The notes: generated by a model from the sequence alone, not told the origin. Positions 54,113-64,000 are shown, counted from the first letter of the stretch. The stretch: 64,000 bases of DNA from an uncultured Prevotellaceae bacterium (GCA_900314395.1 OMVB01000157.1:4433-68432), one strand, 5' to 3'. Numbers and translations are program-made.

Positions 54113-54149
54113 AAAAAAAGATTCTCAGAACATTCTGAGAATCTTTTTT
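54113..54149. terminator. Bidirectional intrinsic terminator
   Basis: AAAAAAGATTCTCAGA-ACAT-TCTGAGAATCTTTTTT between the A2M stop and the convergent tRNA fragment. Confidence 0.85.
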
Positions 54150-54153
54150 GTTG

Positions 54154-54196
54154 TGGGAGCAGAGGGAGTCGAACCCCCGACCCTCTGCTTGTAAGG
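54154..54196 (-). pseudogene. 3' half of tRNA-Val(TAC), probable att-site duplication
   Basis: Minus strand C-CTTACAA-GCAGA-GGGTC-GGGGG-TTCGACT-CCCTC-TGCTCCC-A contains the anticodon loop, T arm and 3' acceptor strand. The D arm and 5' acceptor strand are absent and replaced by AT-rich DNA. Confidence 0.88.
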
Positions 54197-54362: not shown

Positions 54363-54875
54363 TTATTTTTCAAGAGGTGTGATGATGTATTCTAATTCTA
54401 TATTATATGCCTCTTTGATTTTGTATAAGTAGGAAATAGAGATATTGTCGTTTTTGAACCAGTTAAAAACTGCACCGGGGGATACTTGTATGTCTCGGGC
54501 CAATTCGGTTTTACCGATATTGTTCTTTATCATGAACTCTTCAAGAAAAGCTATGTTTTTGTTTTTCAGTTCTGTACTTTTTGATTTGGTATTATCTTCT
54601 TTTCTTGTAAATGACATGGTGTAGTTTTTAATTTCTTCCTCTTTTTTGGTCAGTTTTATTTCCAGATTGTATCCAAGATTTTTGAGTATTGTGTAAGCCC
54701 TGGTTACTTTCATGTCGTCTCGTGTGAGGTTTTGACGGAGTTGAACGGCTTCACTGTGGGGATTGCTAGTGTATTCCCCGTAAGTTTCTGGAGTAAGTTT
54801 CAGCTCACTCAAGACTTCTGTTAAGAACCGCAAGTTCTTGCAGGTCTTAATTTTTGATTTGTTTTTCGGTTCCAT
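54363..54875 (-). CDS. XRE/Cro-type HTH regulator with two internal repeats
   Basis: C-terminal half IGKTELARDIQVSPGAVFNWFK is a clear HTH; N-terminal half (KNLRFLTEVL vs KNIAFLEEFM) is a degenerate repeat. Confidence 0.7.
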   Translation of the reverse strand: MEPKNKSKIKTCKNLRFLTEVLSELKLTPETYGEYTSNPHSEAVQLRQNLTRDDMKVTRAYTILKNLGYNLEIKLTKKEEEIKNYTMSFTRKEDNTKSKSTELKNKNIAFLEEFMIKNNIGKTELARDIQVSPGAVFNWFKNDNISISYLYKIKEAYNIELEYIITPLEK

Positions 54876-55221: not shown

Positions 55222-56265
55222 ATGACGAGTAACATTACATATCGCTCTATGCGGTTATTCACCATTCCGGTGGCCGACATCCTTTCCTGGTTCGGGAAGC
55301 GTGTTGACCACCGTGGTTATATGTACTACTCTCCTTTCCGTGAGGAGTCCGAGCCGTCGATGCGTGTGTCTGTAAACAGTGCAGACGGGACGTGGCTTTG
55401 GGCTGATTATGGTGGCTCTCCGAAGTCCGGTAAGAAAGTTGACGGCGGGGGCTGTCTTGACATGGTCTGTCGTCTGGGGAATTTCTCGTCTTATAAGGAT
55501 GCATTGAAGGAGCTTGAGCGTATAGCGGAGAGCCGTGGGATGGCTGTTATTGAGGAGGAGTCCAGGGTTGAGCGTAAGCGTGCGCAGAAGCCCACAGGAA
55601 TCGTTCTTGACAGTAGCGGCGCCCTGTTTACCCGTAGGGCACTTGTGCGTTATGCCAAGGAGGTGCGCGGAATCCCCGAGGATATTCTTTCCCGGTATTG
55701 CTGTCAGGTAACATATCATCCTCGTTCAAAAGAGGGTAGTCAGTTCACGGTTATCGGTTTCCCTAACAATGAGGGAGGCTATGCGCTGCGTGGTACCGGC
55801 GCTGCATCCAAGAGTAAGTTCAAGAGTAAGTTCAGCACCGCTTCCGGTATTACTACCATTAAGGCCGACGGCTCTTTCAGTCCGAAGGGCGGCGTCTCCT
55901 CTGACAAGTGTCTTCTCTTTGAGGGATTCATGGATTTCATGTCTTATCTTGTTTGGAAGGGTGTCGTTGTTCCCGGCGATGCCGATGTCTGTGTGCTTAA
56001 TTCCACATCGATGGTTTCTTATTCTAGGTCATGGGTTGAATCCCATTCCAAGGTGCGTACTTTCTTTGACAATGACAAGGCCGGCAGCAAGGCTACGGAG
56101 GAGGTGCAGTCCTGGTGCACTGGAAAGGGACTTGATTTCAAGGATGGCCGTTCGGCATATAAAGGGTATAAGGATCTTAATGAGGCGTGGACTGCGGAGC
56201 TTGAGCGGAGGCGGCAGGTAAGAGAACGGAAGGCTGCGAAGTCAACAGGAAAGAAAATAAAGTAA
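55222..56265 (+). CDS. Toprim-domain DNA primase-like protein
   Basis: YYSPFREESEPSMRV (zinc-finger-like N-terminus lacking Cys), FEGFMDFMS and FFDNDKAG Toprim motifs. Confidence 0.85.
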   Translation: MTSNITYRSMRLFTIPVADILSWFGKRVDHRGYMYYSPFREESEPSMRVSVNSADGTWLWADYGGSPKSGKKVDGGGCLDMVCRLGNFSSYKDALKELERIAESRGMAVIEEESRVERKRAQKPTGIVLDSSGALFTRRALVRYAKEVRGIPEDILSRYCCQVTYHPRSKEGSQFTVIGFPNNEGGYALRGTGAASKSKFKSKFSTASGITTIKADGSFSPKGGVSSDKCLLFEGFMDFMSYLVWKGVVVPGDADVCVLNSTSMVSYSRSWVESHSKVRTFFDNDKAGSKATEEVQSWCTGKGLDFKDGRSAYKGYKDLNEAWTAELERRRQVRERKAAKSTGKKIK

Positions 56266-56306
56266 TCAAATATAAATCATTATTAACCTTCTAAAATTTT
56301 AGTATT

Positions 56307-57230
56307 ATGGCTGAAACAAAAAAAACTTTGGATCCTAGTGTAAAGGAGCGTCTTGACCTCATTGATTGGGATGGTCTTAAGAATTCCTTTGGTGTTACAC
56401 GTGAAGCAATCGAGAAGAACCCCAAGGTTGCATCACAGCTTGTTTACGGTGCTATGACTGATCTTGTTCAGTTCAACACCGGTGATATCTCTGGTGAGGT
56501 TTCTCTTCGTGCGTTCCCCACTCCTGCCGAGTCAAAAGACCTCTGGAAGGTGAAGGGTTATACAAAGCAGGAGGAGAAGTCCGAAGACCAGAAGCTCTTC
56601 TTCTACGGTGAGGAGATTTATTCCAAGGCCGCCAAGAAGGCCCTCTTTGAGAAGACTTCTTGGATGGGTACCGATAAAGACGGCAAGCAGGTGCGTAAGT
56701 ATGGCAATGCCAATGCGAGCACCGGTATTCCTGTAGCTTTCGCTTTTAAGAAGCGTGACGAGAACGGAAATGTCATCATGGGTCCCGACGGCAAGCCCGA
56801 GCGTGAGCCCAAGCGTTCATTCATTCTTTCTATCCACCAGCCAACCAATCAGATTGTTGGTATCGCTGTTGATAAGCTCAAGGAGCGTCTTCAGAACTCC
56901 AAGAACGGAGTTTCCATGTATGGTGTGAAGCTCACTGATGAACAGATCAACCAGGTGGCCAACGGTGGAGCCGTTATCCTTAAGGATTGCAAGAACAAGA
57001 AGGGTGAGTCTTTCAATGCCGCTGTTCAGTTCGATGTCTCTCAGATGACTCTCGTTCCGGTTCATCCTACTGCTCTCAAACAGGCTGAGCGTATGGGTGC
57101 CGACCTTGGTATCGGTAAGAATTCTCCTTCTGAGACTTCTCAGAAAGTCGAGAATAAACCTGCCAAGAAGTCTGAGAAGAAAGCTGCTCCTGCAGTAGAC
57201 AGGAAGCCCAAGACCAGACTTCAGAGATAG
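56307..57230 (+). CDS. DUF4099/DUF3945-like conjugative-element protein
   Basis: N-terminal IDWDGLKNSFGVTREAIEK and C-terminal GVKLTDEQINQVANGGAVILKDCKNKKGESFNAAVQFD, recalled as similar to these families. Confidence 0.65.
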   Translation: MAETKKTLDPSVKERLDLIDWDGLKNSFGVTREAIEKNPKVASQLVYGAMTDLVQFNTGDISGEVSLRAFPTPAESKDLWKVKGYTKQEEKSEDQKLFFYGEEIYSKAAKKALFEKTSWMGTDKDGKQVRKYGNANASTGIPVAFAFKKRDENGNVIMGPDGKPEREPKRSFILSIHQPTNQIVGIAVDKLKERLQNSKNGVSMYGVKLTDEQINQVANGGAVILKDCKNKKGESFNAAVQFDVSQMTLVPVHPTALKQAERMGADLGIGKNSPSETSQKVENKPAKKSEKKAAPAVDRKPKTRLQR

Positions 57231-57264
57231 TACCTTTCTCTCTTTTATTCTTTTTTGTGTTCAC

Positions 57265-57307
57265 GGTGGGGGCGCGGCATCATATTGCCCCCGTCCCCAC
57301 CATTTTT
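57265..57307 (+). terminator. GC-rich hairpin followed by a U-tract
   Basis: GGTGGGG...GGCA-TCATAT-TGCC...CCCCACC-ATTTTT. Confidence 0.55.
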
Positions 57308-57327
57308 AATTAATATTATTTGTCGTT

Positions 57328-58449
57328 ATGCCTACTCCATCTGAGAAGATCGCGCAGCGTTATGCTGATATTTTTGTTTCTGCGTTTGACAGGATTGTCG
57401 GGGACCCTGCGTCACCGCTTCTTGTTGGTTGTGCTGTTCCGAATGCCGGTGCCAACGGTGTTCCTTTCCGTGGGTGTAACGCACTTCTTACATCAATCAT
57501 TTCCGCCGACAGGGGGTTTAATATTCCCGTGTGGCTTACACGTTCAAGGCTGTCGGAGCTGGGACTTCTTATCCGTAAGGGTGAGAAGAATACACCTATC
57601 GTTCATTATGATGTGTTTTATGAGGATGTGAATACCAAGAAACGTGACCCGCAGATGAATGATGCTCTTTATAGGGCTCTTTCGGATGAAGATAAGAAAC
57701 AGTGGGTCAAACGTTGTTATATGACGGCTTATCCGGAGTTTAATGTAGCGCAGACGAATTTCAGTGAGGTCTATCCCGAACAGTGGGAGGAGCTTGTTTC
57801 GACGTTCGGCACTCCGGAGCGAATTGCTGCCAGTTGCGGAGACATTGACCGTGCCGTTGGTTGTCCGCAGGGGGAGGACGGAGCCTGGCTCTGTCCGATT
57901 AAGATTGACAATGAGCGTAAGAGTCCTGTTTACAGGGAGGCTTACGATGATATACTTGTACCGCCGAAGGAGTCGTATGCCGACCAGCAGCAGTGGTACG
58001 CTGATATTGTGCATGAGATGGCACATTCTACTGGAAGTGAGGCGCGTGCCGACAGGAATCTGTCGTCAGGTGTTCTCGAAGAGAGGGCTCACGAGGAGAT
58101 GGTCGCCGAACTTGCAGGAGCGACCGTATGTACTATGTTAGGAGTGCAGACGGGCATCCAGGAGCATAATCTTGGATTTTTGAAGGCCTGGTCGTCTGTT
58201 ATTAAGAACGACCCTATGGTCATCTATAAGGCCGTCAATGAGGCTTCGAAGGCGGCGGAGATGATTAGCGGTACGCTTGGACTGGAGATGCGTCGTGGGT
58301 TTAATCTGGATAAGATTATGGAGGGCGTTGAGAAGGCACAGGAGACGCGTGAGAAGGTGCAGCAGCAAAGGGCCCAGAGACAGTCCCGGGGAGGAAAGAA
58401 GGCACGTAGGCCGTTGAAGGTTGCTAAGGCTAAGGGACGTCACGTTTAA
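57328..58449 (+). CDS. ardC: ArdC-like antirestriction protein (ssDNA-binding N-domain plus zincin/MPTase domain)
   Basis: GVPFRGCNAL..., VWLT...IRKGEK, EFNVAQT, HEMAHSTG (HExxH) and EEMVAELAG motifs. Confidence 0.85.
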   Translation: MPTPSEKIAQRYADIFVSAFDRIVGDPASPLLVGCAVPNAGANGVPFRGCNALLTSIISADRGFNIPVWLTRSRLSELGLLIRKGEKNTPIVHYDVFYEDVNTKKRDPQMNDALYRALSDEDKKQWVKRCYMTAYPEFNVAQTNFSEVYPEQWEELVSTFGTPERIAASCGDIDRAVGCPQGEDGAWLCPIKIDNERKSPVYREAYDDILVPPKESYADQQQWYADIVHEMAHSTGSEARADRNLSSGVLEERAHEEMVAELAGATVCTMLGVQTGIQEHNLGFLKAWSSVIKNDPMVIYKAVNEASKAAEMISGTLGLEMRRGFNLDKIMEGVEKAQETREKVQQQRAQRQSRGGKKARRPLKVAKAKGRHV

Positions 58450-58493
58450 GATAGAATAATACTACTTGATAATAAATTTAATTCTTTACCATT

Positions 58494-59633
58494 ATGGAAG
58501 AGATTGTAAATAATAATGAGGTTAGACCTATCGACAGGCTTTTTAAGGATAGTCCTGATGTACAGGTATATGGCTTTTCCTTTGATAAGGCTGCCGAGTA
58601 TCTGCGTGATGTCCAGATGAAGATGTCCCGTGCCATCGGGTGGAAGGATCCTACCCAGCCGTTTGATTTCGACAGGTTCTCAGGATTCTATCCGGAGGTT
58701 TATTCCGACCATGCAGATATCTGTCATGGGAACTATGTCGTAGCCCGTTTCTCTGCCGCTACGGACGGCTCGCTTGCGTTTAAGCCCATGGCGGATGAAT
58801 TTGGGATGTATCCTGATGATATCAAGCCCTGGTACCCCCTTGGGGATATCATGGATGGTAAGTTCTGTCTGGAGAAGGAAAACATCGATGCGGCAAGACG
58901 TGAGTGCAACGAGGGAATGGTCATCATCTATGGTCTTCGTTATGGCGAAGATATTGCTTTTGGCTATAATTCTGATGATATGCGTGTCAAGAGAGCTCTT
59001 GTCGCCGAGAACCCTAACATTCGTCTTGTCGGAGAGGAAACGTTACTGAATGCCGTTGGTAATTGGATTAACTATGACTGTGTTCCGGGTATGGAGCACG
59101 CGCAGCGTCCGGAGATAGTTCGTTTCGCCTGGGACGGAGAAACTCTTCGTTCGGAGAAAGAAGTTTGCCTTTTCCTTGCACAGAAGAATGGTGTCGATGA
59201 AGATCTGCAATTGCAACGTCTTGAGCATGACTGGGATATCATTAAGCATCTGAGGGCCGAGGGGGAGAAGGTGCGTCGGGAGTTGGAGAAGGCCGTTGGG
59301 ATTCCTGAAGGTTCTCATTTCAATTTCACAAATGCTGTTTATCCGTCATATGGACTACGTGATGATGCGTTGTTCCTTACGGACAAGTGTGGAAGGCATA
59401 TAACGAATTTCATCACTTCTGCGGGTGGACAGATAACGTATAATAGGGAATATGATGCTGACAGGATGTTGTCTGCTCCGGAGAAGTCCTTCTCCTCTGT
59501 GAAGGAAGCTATGGATACCGTTCGTAAGGCCGTTCTTAATCCTAAGAACATAGAAGCTGCCAAGATGGATTATCAGCGTTATGTACAGTCGCAGAAGCAG
59601 ACTGATAAGGTCTCTTCTGGAATCAAGAGATAA
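58494..59633 (+). CDS. Hypothetical protein
   Basis: 379-aa ORF, co-directional, codon usage like its neighbours; no family recognised. Confidence 0.75.
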   Translation: MEEIVNNNEVRPIDRLFKDSPDVQVYGFSFDKAAEYLRDVQMKMSRAIGWKDPTQPFDFDRFSGFYPEVYSDHADICHGNYVVARFSAATDGSLAFKPMADEFGMYPDDIKPWYPLGDIMDGKFCLEKENIDAARRECNEGMVIIYGLRYGEDIAFGYNSDDMRVKRALVAENPNIRLVGEETLLNAVGNWINYDCVPGMEHAQRPEIVRFAWDGETLRSEKEVCLFLAQKNGVDEDLQLQRLEHDWDIIKHLRAEGEKVRRELEKAVGIPEGSHFNFTNAVYPSYGLRDDALFLTDKCGRHITNFITSAGGQITYNREYDADRMLSAPEKSFSSVKEAMDTVRKAVLNPKNIEAAKMDYQRYVQSQKQTDKVSSGIKR

Positions 59634-59660
59634 ATTTTACAAACTATATAAGTAACTGTT

Positions 59661-62138
59661 ATGATTGGAACGATGGCCGGAGATATTATTGCATCTCCAT
59701 ATGTAAATAATCCGAGGGAGAAGACATCAGATATTTTCTTTCCTCTCTTCACCGCTTCTGAGAAGGTGACTGTAAACGGAAGGACAGTTCGTAGTCGTAC
59801 TTATCAGCCGCAGGACGGAGTTTGTTCTGCTCTTGCTAAGGCGGCTACGGAGTGGTATGTCTCCGGCGATCATTCTCTCGAAGCATGGAATGCAAGTAAA
59901 GAGAAGTTCCTTGAGGGACGTCATCCTTCCGGAACGGAAGTGCTTGCCGTCTGTGGCCCTATTGTCCGTATGGCGGACAATCTAGATGAAGCGCTTCGTA
60001 TGTCCGCACTTGCGGTTTCTGATTTGAAACCAAGAGGAGAGGTAGTATCCGCTTCTGCGGATTTCACTGTGCTTCTCTGGGCGATGCGCTCTCCTGCAAG
60101 AGAGGAGGAGATAGCAAGGGCAAGACGCAGGCTTGAAGACTCCGGATATGACCTTCACCGTAATTCTTCTGAGATTCGTCCTTTCCTTGACGGAACTGTT
60201 ATTGAGGCGGAAGCCGGCAAGTTAACCATGGGTGACGGTAAGGTCCATTCAGAGCCGAAGGATGTCATTCCGGGAGTGTGGGCTGTACTTTCTGAAAGCC
60301 GTTCGTTTGAGGAGGCTGTACGCAGGGCTGTTGCCCTTGGCGGCAATCCGGTGGTTAACGCTACGCTTGTAGGTGCCGCCGCCGAGCAGCGCTGGGATAT
60401 CCCCGAAGAGATTCGAAAAAACACAGAGAAGTTCCTTTCTGCGCAAGATCGCACCCTGCTTAATAAATATGACAGGTTCCTTAAGGCAAAGGCTGAGGGG
60501 GAGTCTTTTAAGCAGAGCCGTGCGGAGGCGAACGGGACGAAGTTTTCTGTGATTCGTCTCGAAGGCCTTGGTTCCATCTATGTCATTCCTGAAGGCAGGA
60601 AGGATATAGAGGACGCCGTAAAGAAGGCGAATAAGGCGGCCGGCAAGAGTGAGAAGGCGGGAGATTATGTCATTATTCGTCCGGAGGAACTGGAGTCCGT
60701 AGTTACCCGTCTTTCGGAGCAGAAGGACGAATCTGGTAAGTTACTTGATGGCACCTATATCGAGCATCCTCGTCCGGAGGTTAAGTCCCTTTGGATGCAA
60801 AACGGTGAAATCCGCACGTCCACTACCCGTTCCGGAGAGGGTGTTGGTGGAGCGAAGCTTCCAAGTGTAGAGACCAGGAAGAATATCTTGAATGACTGGA
60901 GCGAGCTGAAGGAGTATGCCAGTAAAGTAAGGTCTGATTTGGAAAATTTTATTGGTTTTAAATCAAAAGGTAAGGATCATATTCATTTTGAATCGGCGTT
61001 TTATCCTGTCGTTCTTGACAGGAGCATTGAGATCCGTGAGGGAGATATTCTCCGTGCCCAGGTGGGTATTGATGATAACGGGCGGTTCTCTGTGAATACT
61101 AATGTGTTTACAGGAGGTGTGCATACAGAAGGGATTGACGGTGTCCTTAACACCATGAACCTCCTTCCCAAGTCTGCCGGCATGAAGGAGTTCAAGCAGG
61201 TGCTTGATGAATATTGTTTGGATTATGGCAGGATTGAGGAAGAAGGAGAGCGTAAGGCCCTTAAGGATGGAGATGAATCTGAGGTTCATGCAATCCGTAA
61301 GAAATACAAGTCTAACGTTGACAGGGCGTATGAAGATGCCAGGATTGAGTTAAAGTCCGCTGTCATGCCCGAAGGCCCCCATCTATCGGGGAAAGCGGAG
61401 GCGATCCGGCAGGAGCGCCTGGCGGAGAGCGTGGAGCGCTACGCCGGCATGACCAGGACGGATGTGGTGGATTCACAGCTCCATAAGGGCTCTGTGTTCA
61501 CTATTGGACATAGCAACTTATCCCAGGAGGAGTTTGACAAGCTTTTGAAACGTCATGGCATCGAGGTGCTTGTTGATATTCGTTCAATTCCTAATTCAAG
61601 GTTTGCAAAGCAGTTCAATAAGGATACTCTTGATTCCCATCTTATGGAGAAGGATATAGAGTATTATCATTTCCCTGAGTTCGGAGGAAAGCAGTATGTG
61701 ACTGAGAAGGATGAAAAGGGGAAAAACGTGCAGCGTCAGATGTCTTATGAGGAAATCATGAAGACTGATGAATTCAAGAAAGGGATGAAGAGTCTCCGGG
61801 ATTGCGTAAAGGGCGGTTACCGCGTTGCGCTTATGTGTTCGGAAAATGAGCCTCTTGATTGTCACAGGATGGTAATGATGGGCCGTGCTCTTGCACATCC
61901 TGAGGTGTACGGCAGTAAGTCGAAACCGATTGACGTACAGCATATCACCAGGAGTGGATATACTCTTAGTCAGAGTTTCATGGAGCAGAAGATGTTATCC
62001 AACTATAAGTCGGATAATCTGAATGAAGTGTATAAGCTTCGAGGAGAGCAGCTTGTCAATAAGGCTGAACAGCCAAAGAGGATTTCTCTTAGAAGAAACT
62101 ATGAGAATAAGAAGACTTCTAAAGGAGTAAGGAGGTAA
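59661..62138 (+). CDS. Fusion of a degenerate ADP-ribosylglycohydrolase-like domain, an unknown middle region and DUF488
   Basis: N-terminal MIGTMAGDIIASPY and AVALGGNPVVNATLVGAAAEQRWDIPEEI (ARH fold ends); C-terminal VFTIGHSN, LVDIRSIPNSR and LMCSENEPLDCHR (DUF488). Confidence 0.75.
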   Translation: MIGTMAGDIIASPYVNNPREKTSDIFFPLFTASEKVTVNGRTVRSRTYQPQDGVCSALAKAATEWYVSGDHSLEAWNASKEKFLEGRHPSGTEVLAVCGPIVRMADNLDEALRMSALAVSDLKPRGEVVSASADFTVLLWAMRSPAREEEIARARRRLEDSGYDLHRNSSEIRPFLDGTVIEAEAGKLTMGDGKVHSEPKDVIPGVWAVLSESRSFEEAVRRAVALGGNPVVNATLVGAAAEQRWDIPEEIRKNTEKFLSAQDRTLLNKYDRFLKAKAEGESFKQSRAEANGTKFSVIRLEGLGSIYVIPEGRKDIEDAVKKANKAAGKSEKAGDYVIIRPEELESVVTRLSEQKDESGKLLDGTYIEHPRPEVKSLWMQNGEIRTSTTRSGEGVGGAKLPSVETRKNILNDWSELKEYASKVRSDLENFIGFKSKGKDHIHFESAFYPVVLDRSIEIREGDILRAQVGIDDNGRFSVNTNVFTGGVHTEGIDGVLNTMNLLPKSAGMKEFKQVLDEYCLDYGRIEEEGERKALKDGDESEVHAIRKKYKSNVDRAYEDARIELKSAVMPEGPHLSGKAEAIRQERLAESVERYAGMTRTDVVDSQLHKGSVFTIGHSNLSQEEFDKLLKRHGIEVLVDIRSIPNSRFAKQFNKDTLDSHLMEKDIEYYHFPEFGGKQYVTEKDEKGKNVQRQMSYEEIMKTDEFKKGMKSLRDCVKGGYRVALMCSENEPLDCHRMVMMGRALAHPEVYGSKSKPIDVQHITRSGYTLSQSFMEQKMLSNYKSDNLNEVYKLRGEQLVNKAEQPKRISLRRNYENKKTSKGVRR

Positions 62139-62140
62139 CT

Positions 62141-62326
62141 ATGGATACTATGGATGAAATATTTGGTGTTCCCAGGATTGACTACGAGAAGATAGCGCGT
62201 TCTCGTTCAAAAGATTCTATGTCGCAGCTGAAAGAGCAGGAAGCGGCTTCTGAACAGAGAGCTGAAGAGAGACGGGAAAAGAAAGGTTATCGTAAATTTC
62301 ATAGATTGTTATGTTGTACATTTTAG
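62141..62326 (+). CDS. Small hypothetical protein, possibly the 5' part of a frameshifted gene
   Basis: 61 aa; starts 2 nt after the upstream stop; overlaps the next ORF by 16 nt. Confidence 0.5.
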   Translation: MDTMDEIFGVPRIDYEKIARSRSKDSMSQLKEQEAASEQRAEERREKKGYRKFHRLLCCTF

Positions 62327-63375
62327 CAAATGCAGAATATGATTTTTTCTCCACTTTGGAGCATAATATCGATCTGTATAATATGGGTGTAGGAGACAAG
62401 GCTTTAGAACTTGCTTCCCTGGGGAAGAATATTTTTTATATGCAGTTAAGTTCTGATGGCGTCCACGCCTATGAACTTAAATCCACAAAATCTGACCGGG
62501 TATTATTTTCCCTTAGGAGTGTCGATGAGAATGACACTGGTCTTCTTGTTGATATTGAGGATAATATTGGGTTGTTAGGTTCATTGAACAGATATCCTAA
62601 TACTGTTTTTGAATCCAAATCAGCGGCTGTTTCCGATGCTGGATTAAGGGGCCCATATCCTGTTTTGGATGCTGAAGTTATCGGTGATTATCTGGAGGAG
62701 AGACTTTTTTCTAAAGAGAATCTCCGGCTTTCCGGTAATGAGAAATATCTTTCTTTTGATGCATATTCGTCTTATCTTCGTTATGCTGATGAACCATCAC
62801 ATGTTTCTGTGAAGGATGTCAATAAAGAGTTATCCAGAAGGAATTCGCCGGCTTTAGGCAATTACAGCTATCTTGACATTTTGTCTGTAGCGCATAATCC
62901 AAATATGGAGTTGATGGATTTTACTGGGAAAAGTAATGTTCAGGTTGTATGTGATCTGCTTGAGGTGGAAGTGAAGAAGAGGGGTGAATGCTTATCTAAT
63001 AACAAGTTTATGTTTGTTTCTGACGAGATGAAAGCTAATCATCAGGAAGAACAGATTGTTCTTATTAAGTCGGATATGCTTCGTGGTTTAAATCCGTTTA
63101 GCGGAGGAAAGCTTCTTGGAGAGGCTGATGGATATAAGGTTGTAATTAAGTTTGTTGACCCTGCAAAGGATCCTTTCGGACGAACAAGAAAGGTGGATTA
63201 CCTGAGGAATGGTAGTTCCATCAGTTTCCTTAAGGCATGCAAGATACATCCGGAGATGAAGGATATCATGTTTAAGGCCTTAAGTAAGGCGGAACGCCGT
63301 TCCAAGAACATCGAGAGGTTTGACAGGTTCAAGCAGTCGATTGGTATTTCGCGAAAGAAAGTGTTGGGTGTTTAA
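62311..63375 (+). CDS. Hypothetical protein
   Basis: 354-aa ORF, co-directional; no family recognised. Confidence 0.7.
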   Translation: MLYILANAEYDFFSTLEHNIDLYNMGVGDKALELASLGKNIFYMQLSSDGVHAYELKSTKSDRVLFSLRSVDENDTGLLVDIEDNIGLLGSLNRYPNTVFESKSAAVSDAGLRGPYPVLDAEVIGDYLEERLFSKENLRLSGNEKYLSFDAYSSYLRYADEPSHVSVKDVNKELSRRNSPALGNYSYLDILSVAHNPNMELMDFTGKSNVQVVCDLLEVEVKKRGECLSNNKFMFVSDEMKANHQEEQIVLIKSDMLRGLNPFSGGKLLGEADGYKVVIKFVDPAKDPFGRTRKVDYLRNGSSISFLKACKIHPEMKDIMFKALSKAERRSKNIERFDRFKQSIGISRKKVLGV

Positions 63376-63386
63376 TACTATGGGTT

Positions 63387-64000
63387 ATGATTGAGATAGA
63401 CAAGGGGCAGCACATGGCAATGATCCAACTCTCTCTTATGGGGGTGTCCGTGAATGTCCATATTGATATGAATAATATCAGGAAAGAACATTTGCTGCAG
63501 AACAGCAGGCTGTCGGAGTTGTCTCCGAAACGTCTGGTGTCTCTTCTTGAATTCACGGACCATACATTTAAGGTTGACCCTAAGTCTGTTGTTCCATGGA
63601 GAGACCAGTTTCTGATGAGATTATCGAAGAACTGTGACGAGCTATTGAGCCTGCCAAAGACACTTTCTGTTGCGGAGATGGATTATATCCGTAAGACTGT
63701 AAAGGATTCTAACATGTCTTTGGCAAAGGCGGCAAAGGTTGTTCCGGAGATGGTTCATAAGGCACAGAAGATATCATATCAGTATCATGATGGGTTTAAT
63801 CATCTGACCCGTGATGATGATTTTATTGCGGTTCGTGCCGGAAGACGAATTGTGGGTATGATTCCTCTCCCTGGAAACGATTTCAATGAGCTTAAGAAGT
63901 TCCTTAAGTTAGGTGGCGACAGGGTCCTTGAACCGGAGAATGTGGCTAAGTTTCTTAAAGCGGTCAAGGAAGTAAAGCGCAATGAGGCCATGCAGGTCAT
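63387..64000 (+). CDS. Hypothetical protein, N-terminal part; runs off the window
   Basis: Manual translation MIEIDKGQHMAMIQLSLMG... is open to 64000; not in the ORF track because it lacks a stop. Confidence 0.7.
   Translation, partial: MIEIDKGQHMAMIQLSLMGVSVNVHIDMNNIRKEHLLQNSRLSELSPKRLVSLLEFTDHTFKVDPKSVVPWRDQFLMRLSKNCDELLSLPKTLSVAEMDYIRKTVKDSNMSLAKAAKVVPEMVHKAQKISYQYHDGFNHLTRDDDFIAVRAGRRIVGMIPLPGNDFNELKKFLKLGGDRVLEPENVAKFLKAVKEVKRNEAMQV

Follow-up and report, generated by a model that had tools for sequence, protein, structure and literature searches.

ADP-ribosylglycohydrolase (ARH, or ARG) domains and phosphatases of the rhodanese-phosphatase superfamily, often in the company of Macro or NADAR domains, have been predicted computationally to constitute systems for reversing ADP-ribosylation (Iyer, Burroughs, Anantharaman & Aravind 2022, PMC9503650, section 3.8). 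These ARG-centric systems are chromosomal, are found in actinobacteria, planctomycetes and proteobacteria, contain an ARG that is presumably active, and are associated with Nudix or WYL regulators and with chaperones (PMC9503650). Here we describe a gene in a 64,000-nt stretch of DNA from an uncultured Prevotellaceae bacterium (GCA_900314395.1 OMVB01000157.1:4433-68432; the whole stretch is called the window below), the host genus being Candidatus Cryptobacteroides. Its product, encoded on the plus strand at 59661-62138, has 825 residues in three parts (ARH-like, middle and DUF488) and is a conserved protein of conjugative elements of gut and rumen Bacteroidales. As in the ARG-centric systems, ARH is coupled to a domain reportedly assigned to the rhodanese-phosphatase superfamily, DUF488, in this case within one polypeptide; no ADP-ribosyltransferase (ART) is linked to it, relatives add NADAR, and the setting is one of biological conflict. 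In contrast to those systems, the ARH domain appears to be dead, the protein is carried by a Bacteroidales conjugative element, and its two parts are separated by a new middle domain. Nudix, WYL, vWA and SseB gave no match at the window and the loci examined, where an HTH_3 protein is the only regulator and no chaperone was found. The coupling of ARH with a rhodanese phosphatase has thus already been predicted, and the DUF488-fused family with its apparently dead ARH is a variant of it.

By structure and by profile, the N-terminal domain is best matched by Tri1 of Serratia proteamaculans (6dre/6drh) and Lmo0067 (8za7). Both differ from the present protein in having an intact metal site and an adjacent ART toxin, and in having neither DUF488 nor the middle domain. 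Tri1 also has a non-enzymatic, occlusive mode of action. Retention of the ARH fold after loss of the metal-binding residues is known from ARH2/ADPRHL1, a catalytically inactive, cardiac ARH paralogue of vertebrates, which differs in being eukaryotic, in lacking fused enzyme domains and in its unrelated context. The DarG antitoxins of macrodomain or NADAR type and the phage-borne orphan antitoxin-like anti-DarTG1 enzymes, the latter described in a preprint (bioRxiv 10.1101/2024.07.11.602962), appear to share with our protein the character of a mobile-element protein of the ADP-ribose network without a cognate transferase, and relatives of our protein carry NADAR. The protein itself, in contrast, lacks macro and NADAR domains alike, and its ARH domain is predicted to be incapable of canonical hydrolysis. 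ArdC/polyvalent modules and leading-region anti-defence islands (PMC5512222; Samuel et al. 2024, PMC11541004) resemble the locus in that ArdC-N/MPTase-PolyVal and a primase share one operon at a conjugative element's edge; the polyvalent-protein survey (Iyer et al. 2017, PMC5512222) contains no mention of ARH or DUF488. On PvCTn of Phocaeicola vulgatus, an annotated ARH gene, BVU3362, lies in an operon repressed by a helix-turn-helix (HTH) protein, and its authors suggest a role in regulating the type IV secretion system (T4SS) (PMC11005914). That gene is alike by annotation only, as an ARH-annotated gene on a Bacteroidales conjugative transposon with an HTH repressor.

The three parts of the protein

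The open reading frame (ORF) was confirmed as initially annotated and the positions given within it were exact, GGNPVV being residues 227-232 (60339-60356) and DUF488 starting at about residue 611 (61491). With the whole protein as a single-sequence query no match was obtained in the PDB; NCBIfam gave no match, and PHROGs gave a DUF488-type match only. The Pfam model ADP_ribosyl_GH (PF03747) stayed below its cut-off of 26.2 bits, the whole protein scoring 21.3 bits and residues 1-290 scoring 24.6, whereas several relatives score above the gathering threshold. Using a family profile made from 46 members, matches in the PDB were found to 8za7_A (Lmo0067, 1.2e-8) and 2cwc (Thermus ARH, 8.4e-8), and in this alignment the family consensus GGDSs sits on GGDTDT. 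An AlphaFold2 (AF2) model of the protein had a mean predicted local distance difference test score (pLDDT) of 88.1, with the N-terminal domain mostly above 90. Foldseek returned ARH folds with a probability of 1.0 (Tri1 6dre, 2yzv, 1t5j, ARH3 and DraG); the top match was Tri1 (6dre_A, 4.9e-6), followed by the Thermus and Methanocaldococcus ARHs, ARH3 and DraG, and target-normalised template modelling (TM) scores against ARH structures were 0.48-0.64. Residues 1-280 are a genuine ARH homologue with the all-alpha ARH fold despite the sub-threshold Pfam score, and both the profile search and Foldseek bear out the initial reading of an ARH-like N-terminus.

This domain is the least conserved part of the protein, with a mean column entropy of 2.13 bits compared with 1.51 for DUF488 and 1.2-1.9 for the middle segments. 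Near-invariant positions kept in it are G3, S12-P13, F30, G191/G193, E217 and R221-R222. Since the degenerate domain is kept in about 70 representative sequences with divergence down to about 30% identity, and is modelled with pLDDT above 90, it is retained and not decaying.

In order to place the catalytic motifs, the protein was aligned to a canonical sister protein of the same genus (L015, 561 aa). Relative to this sister, V15 replaces the catalytic Glu, G53-V54-C55-S56 stands at the position of TDDT, and the (S/T)H motif is missing. The motif GGDxDT has become GGNPVV, which aligns to GGDSDT/GGDTDT with N229 and V231 in place of both Asp. The initial annotation was right about GGNPVV and about the lack of an acidic pair; its reading of TDD as PQD was not upheld, P50-Q51-D52 being shifted relative to the true counterpart, G53-V54-C55-S56. 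D52, just upstream of that counterpart, is peculiar to the target sequence. We then counted these residues in 70 representatives of the long form, defined as DUF488-fused proteins of at least 800 aa. The catalytic Glu, an intact TDDT and the second Asp of GGDxDT occur in none of the 70, the TDDT position reads [G/S/T]-hydrophobic-hydrophobic-[S/T], and the first Asp of GGDxDT survives in 39; the TH motif, too, is missing from the roughly 70 fused relatives. Loss of the Asp residues, which had been put forward as a point to check, is thus conserved among the homologues except at this first Asp. Because the Glu, TDDT and second Asp are absent throughout, the ARH domain is predicted to be a pseudoenzyme across the whole DUF488-fused family, without the binuclear metal site and the catalytic Glu residues, and that of the target is predicted to be incapable of hydrolysis by the canonical mechanism.

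The C-terminal part was matched by Pfam DUF488 (PF04343) over residues 623-739 (E = 2.6e-24; 86.6-88.8 bits against a cut-off of 22.2). The TIGHS, DIRSIP and MCSENEPLDCHR motifs are all present, as are the near-invariant residues G616, H617, S618, D639, R641, S646, C726, E728, C734-H735-R736, H746 and H761, and the domain is as complete as it had looked at the outset. In PADLOC, PDC-M45B (PDLC04657) aligned residues 610-815 with profile positions 4-196 of 204 at 5e-40, and PDC-M19A and PDC-M45C also matched this part. The last 200 aa are a genuine DUF488 and share the C-terminal extension of PDC-M45B; PDC-M45B, PDC-M45C and PDC-M19A differ in being short proteins that stand alone, in candidate defence systems or on plasmids of other phyla. 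The plasmids of PLSDB yielded no full-length relative and only stand-alone DUF488 proteins, none with the ARH-like or the middle domain. Foldseek searches of all three segments, as proposed earlier, gave ARH folds for the first, no match for the middle domain, and for DUF488 weak matches only (3ndc, E = 0.21; tyrosine phosphatase 8dhj, E = 0.62). The Cys pair C726/C734 (61836-61838 and 61860-61862) co-varies: about 40 sequences have both Cys, and about 12 have both replaced (S/G/D ... S). Because the two are replaced together, a strictly Cys-dependent mechanism is argued against, and the pattern suggests that the pair is structural and not an essential nucleophile. DUF488 is widespread, and we know of no experiment that has established its function. 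It was earlier predicted to act on ribose-linked phosphates. Burroughs and Aravind are said to have assigned it in 2023 to the rhodanese-phosphatase superfamily, and some members of the RapZ-C/DUF488/DUF4326 clade were reportedly predicted in the same work to process DNA ends.

Between the two lies a middle domain of about 310 aa (residues ~291-605) that holds most of the invariant columns of the family. It is better conserved than the ARH-like domain, and its beta-barrel segment has the lowest column entropy in the protein. Modelled alone with AF2 (pLDDT 84.3, predicted TM score 0.78), it folds into an alpha/beta unit, a long helix, a small beta-barrel of five strands bearing HF-x2-A-x-YP, and a bundle of helices. 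Foldseek found no match to this model in the PDB (best E = 2.8) or in BFVD (best E = 0.46), and Pfam gave no match even in member-by-member scans. The stretch of no recognised family, put at about 340 aa in the initial annotation, therefore stands, at about 330 aa without a Pfam, PDB or BFVD match. When 1.84 billion cluster representatives were scanned in full with HMMER, the domain turned up in 51 clusters only, nearly always at residues ~280-600 of proteins of 800-1200 aa; it is also part of two very large multi-domain proteins, one of which has a DprA-like domain. ARPP (PMC9503650) has a four-stranded beta-meander in duplicate, an inserted barrel, and invariant Cys and Gln residues. Set against this description, the middle domain shows weak beta-meander-like matches (OspA, E ~3) and a near-invariant Cys519 in its small barrel, and it has no invariant Gln. 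Judged by these searches, it is a new domain with no recognisable relatives except a neighbouring stand-alone paralogue, and may be a new enzyme or binding module without fold relatives.

The paralogue (379 aa) is encoded directly upstream. Using hhalign, its residues 151-292 aligned to positions 15-170 of the middle domain with a probability of 93.3% (E = 2.7e-7, ~135 columns). In BLASTP the helix-plus-barrel module was matched twice within the paralogue, which points to an origin with internal duplication. Orthologues of the paralogue are syntenic at three other loci (L004, L006 and L008). The helix-plus-FYP-barrel module appears to be carried twice in it, at residues ~35-100 and 245-330.

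Sister proteins, relatives and the conserved operon

The canonical sister L015, found by a Pfam-model search of related genomes (Pfam ARH 5e-40), opens with the same MLGAVAGDIIGSPY as the target and then runs into the same middle domain. It keeps SPYE, TDDT, SH and GGDSDT; together with a second sister, P0069, the retained motifs are SPYE, TDDT/TDET, (S/T)H and GGDSDT. Because sisters with an intact ARH site share the middle domain, the ancestral module probably worked on ADP-ribose. The intact-ARH sisters and the DUF488 fusions with a dead ARH constitute a natural experiment in pseudoenzyme evolution. The short sister family (~560 aa; canonical ARH site and middle domain, without DUF488) is encoded at L018 9749-11434 (G008:C38) and at L020-L031, and occurs in several metagenome-assembled genomes of Cryptobacteroides and Muribaculaceae. 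Its genes lie on a different mobile element, in the order integrase, ATPase, primase-Toprim gene, DUF4313 gene and sister.

At least 55 metagenome homologues share the three-part architecture. Together with the 51 clusters among 1.84 billion representatives, they rule out a decaying one-off fusion, and recurrence of the architecture in other Bacteroidales elements, also put forward as a check, is established by these homologues and their conserved operon. The fusion is, as far as sequences tell, an old and conserved architecture. The DUF488-fused family is small and without a name, no named database entry having been found for it, and rides conjugative plasmids and integrative and conjugative elements of gut and rumen Bacteroidales. 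It is also rare, with one representative (the window's own genome) among 401 genomes sampled from the order, and GTDB species genomes, scanned for a pattern from the middle-domain alignment, yielded no confirmed locus. Relatives append NADAR, cpYpsA SLOG (circularly permuted YpsA) or DUF7831, or carry an HHH_5 insertion. Since they fuse NADAR and cpYpsA SLOG, the family is best placed, on domain composition, in the network of nicotinamide adenine dinucleotide (NAD) and ADP-ribose biology; the welding of DUF488 to an ARH fold, with NADAR and SLOG in relatives, yields a concrete substrate hypothesis. Three relatives, full-length or partial, are binned as a Methanomethylophilaceae archaeon (L036), Bulleidia (L038) and Anaerotignum (L048). 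Because the Bulleidia contig has a typical Bacteroidota-type Rep3/ParA/primase context, a mis-binned plasmid is likely there, and cross-phylum transfer is possible.

The gene is the fifth of an operon that encodes a Toprim primase, a DUF3945 protein, an ArdC-type protein, the paralogue, the target and further ORFs without an assigned family. All genes are co-directional (+), spaced from a 16-nt overlap to a 97-nt gap, and one end of the integrated element falls just outside the operon. The initial annotation had placed the gene beside ArdC; the two are in the same operon and not directly adjacent, ArdC being two genes upstream. The same gene order occurs in independent metagenome contigs with orthologues of 23-55% identity, always at the element edge, and at four divergent loci the primase, DUF3945, ArdC and paralogue genes are all syntenic. 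The Toprim primase is syntenic in all homologous loci, distant ones included, and the DUF4099/DUF3945/Toprim_Crpt gene in all loci examined, whereas ArdC is present in the closer loci and absent from the distant L034 and L038. Full-length relatives at about 29% identity still follow the primase and DUF3945/Toprim_Crpt genes, with neither ArdC nor the paralogue present. Genomically, the target is most tightly linked to the primase and the DUF3945 gene, not to ArdC. Related elements carry TraN (DUF4138), Rep3, ParA and integrases, and one homologue adjoins BREX. ArdC-N/MPTase and the Toprim primase, co-operonic with the target, are known anti-restriction or establishment genes, and the operon is probably an establishment module conserved among Bacteroidales conjugative elements, the drivers of gene flow in gut and rumen communities.

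Proposed function

We tentatively favour, as a possibility that does not quite amount to a probability, a factor for establishment or anti-defence that would act upon adducts or derivatives of ADP-ribose, in which the dead ARH domain would be the reader and DUF488 the catalyst. The operon would be expressed early, and its products possibly translocated, as the element enters a new cell as single-stranded DNA (ssDNA). The dead ARH domain would read or clamp an ADP-ribose moiety, candidate targets being ADP-ribosylated ssDNA, ADP-ribosylated protein or a free signal derived from ADP-ribose; the chemistry neutralising this adduct or signal would fall to DUF488 and the middle domain, and immunity of the recipient that is of DarT type, or otherwise dependent on NAD, would thereby be countered. 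The anti-defence function first proposed for the gene, a sensor or decoy coupled to DUF488, gains partial support from the conserved dead-ARH fusion in a primase/DUF3945 operon and from the fusions of the ADP-ribose network. DarT modifies ssDNA (Pfam description). The genome itself encodes a DarT and macrodomain pair on contig C106 (L055 504-2199), which looks like DarTG2, and a pair of an ART-PolyVal/DUF3990-like protein and NADAR on contig C65 (L056 2773-3962), which looks like DarTG1; DarT is found in 7 of 81 genomes of the genus. Conjugative DNA enters the recipient as ssDNA. Because DarT acts on the very form in which conjugative DNA arrives, a role of the target against DarT may be regarded as plausible. 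If the operon counters DarT-type or NAD-based immunity, anti-defence biology would be widened from phages to conjugation, in a phylum for which such biology is little known. A more specific form of the proposal we regard as unlikely: a class of counter-defence enzymes delivered by conjugation, in which the dead ARH would read ADP-ribosylated ssDNA, the middle domain and DUF488 would disarm the adduct by chemistry unlike that of DarG or NADAR, and the paralogue would be a partner. If true, DUF488 would thereby gain its first function, and a new domain would be defined.

Several points weigh against an action on ADP-ribose. ADP-ribose is usually bound through the metal site, which is missing here, and the reader role is guesswork. 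Most constant among the neighbours are a primase and a protein of DNA-binding type, which fit DNA processing that need not involve ADP-ribose, and no NADAR or macro domain is found in the target or its operon. The DUF488 part matches candidate defence components in PADLOC, not anti-defence ones, and its Cys pair is replaced by Ser in a minority of relatives, which makes a Cys-based phosphatase mechanism uncertain. The contig ends 3.6 kb downstream with no relaxase or oriT in reach, and a leading-region position is conjectural.

In the main rival explanation, the protein would be a helper that processes DNA or RNA ends during establishment, without ADP-ribose, the pseudo-ARH serving as a scaffold while DUF488 and the middle domain process the termini of the incoming strand (for instance primer or nick phosphates) with the primase and the DUF3945 protein. 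The primase and DUF3945/Toprim_Crpt genes are the only neighbours kept family-wide, even at 29% identity, the ARH catalytic and metal-binding residues are lost, one relative has the HHH_5 insertion and one large middle-domain protein the DprA-like domain, and DNA-end processing is what was reportedly predicted within the RapZ-C/DUF488/DUF4326 clade. However, the NADAR and cpYpsA-SLOG fusions indicate ADP-ribose or nucleotide ligands and not plain DNA ends, and the middle domain shared with intact-ARH sisters indicates an ancestral module on ADP-ribose, so that we hold end processing to be somewhat unlikely. A further rival is a non-enzymatic immunity protein or decoy, in which the dead ARH would bind and occlude an ART, as Tri1 does Tre1, the ART coming from a type VI secretion system, a toxin-antitoxin pair or the element itself. 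The best fold and sequence matches are indeed ARH immunity proteins (6dre_A Tri1 and 8za7_A Lmo0067). An ART domain, however, was not found by Pfam in the conserved operon at any of six loci, which rules out an ART-immunity pair within the operon. The genome's ART-like genes lie on other contigs, each with its own NADAR or macro antidote and chromosomal-looking neighbours, and occlusion leaves the obligatory fusion to conserved DUF488 and middle domains unexplained; we consider this decoy quite improbable.

A cargo gene for phage defence, based on DUF488, kin to PDC-M45 and PDC-M19 and shielding the element's host, would account for the strong PDC-M45B match over residues 610-815, for those of PDC-M19A and PDC-M45C, and for the homologue beside a BREX system. 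The match is confined to the DUF488 part, though, and the gene always sits in the conserved primase/ArdC operon and not in variable cargo. Four neighbouring proteins (one upstream, three downstream) scanned against PADLOC matched no model, and a complete PDC-M45 system, whose partner genes are absent, is ruled out. Phage defence thus seems very improbable. We give hardly any weight to a regulator of conjugation on the donor side that works through ADP-ribose signalling, as proposed for BVU3362. The PvCTn ARH gene lies in an HTH-repressed operon (PMC11005914) and an HTH_3 gene is divergent from the operon here too, but BVU3362 was likened to the family by annotation and not by sequence comparison, the ARH site is apparently dead here, and nothing ties the operon functionally to tra genes.

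The operon at the element boundary

The setting on a mobile element, recognised from the start, is borne out at the probable left boundary of the element (Table 1). At ~54.1 kb the GC content falls from ~0.54 to 0.42-0.49, and the 3' half of a tRNA lies at the junction with a perfect terminator-like hairpin at 54113-54150 just outside it. ARAGORN found no complete tRNA in the window, and Rfam gave weak hairpin matches only at the tRNA half. The tRNA half and hairpin at the GC break fit an element that integrated into, or replaced part of, a tRNA gene. The divergent HTH_3 gene has an orthologue at the same position in L004, L006 and L034.

Table 1. Features around the operon, with coordinates counted from the first nucleotide of the window
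Feature	Coordinates	Strand	Evidence
tRNA 3' half at the chromosome/element junction, probable attL	54150..54195	-	Sequence reading
HTH_3 (Cro/C1-type) regulator, divergent from the operon	54363..54875	-	Pfam E=2.9e-6
Toprim_2 primase-like protein, first operon gene	55222..56265	+	Pfam E=3.4e-11
DUF4099/DUF3945/Toprim_Crpt protein	56307..57230	+	Pfam
ArdC-type protein (ArdC-N + MPTase-PolyVal metallopeptidase)	57328..58449	+	Pfam 3.1e-24, 1.6e-11
Stand-alone paralogue of the middle domain, 379 aa	58494..59633	+	hhalign; BLASTP cross-hits; no Pfam match
Target: ARH-fold domain, predicted pseudoenzyme, residues 1-280	59661..60500	+	Foldseek and PDB profile matches; motif loss
Target: family-specific middle domain, residues 291-605	60531..61475	+	AF2 model; no Pfam, PDB or BFVD match
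Target: DUF488 and conserved C-terminal extension, residues 611-800	61491..62060	+	Pfam; PADLOC PDC-M45B; motif residues intact
Target: basic C-terminal tail and stop codon	62061..62138	+	Net charge +8, last 20 residues
Two downstream ORFs, 61 aa and 354 aa, co-directional	62141..63375	+	No Pfam, NCBIfam, PHROG or PADLOC match
Following operon ORF, truncated at the end of the window (full length 222 aa)	63387..64000	+	Orthologue in L004

The tail of the target is kept in homologues as ISL[KR]RN followed by a basic run. For the plus-strand operon proteins the net charge of the last 20 residues is +8, +6, +9, +4, +8 and +4, whereas 37 chromosomal ORFs of the window average 0.2 (sd 2.7). Such basic C-terminal tails resemble the C-terminal signals of T4SS substrates. 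Their presence across 55222-63375 is a hint, and only that, of a shared translocation signal for delivery during transfer.

The 61-aa ORF (62141-62326) starts 2 nt past the target stop codon and overlaps the next gene by 16 nt, and it is called in three other assemblies. Four independent assemblies, the window's own genome (G000, contig C131) and the metagenomes of L001, L002 and L003, all break within ~20 bp of one another, ~3.58 kb 3' of the gene. This shared break suggests a repeat or a strain-variable junction within the element.

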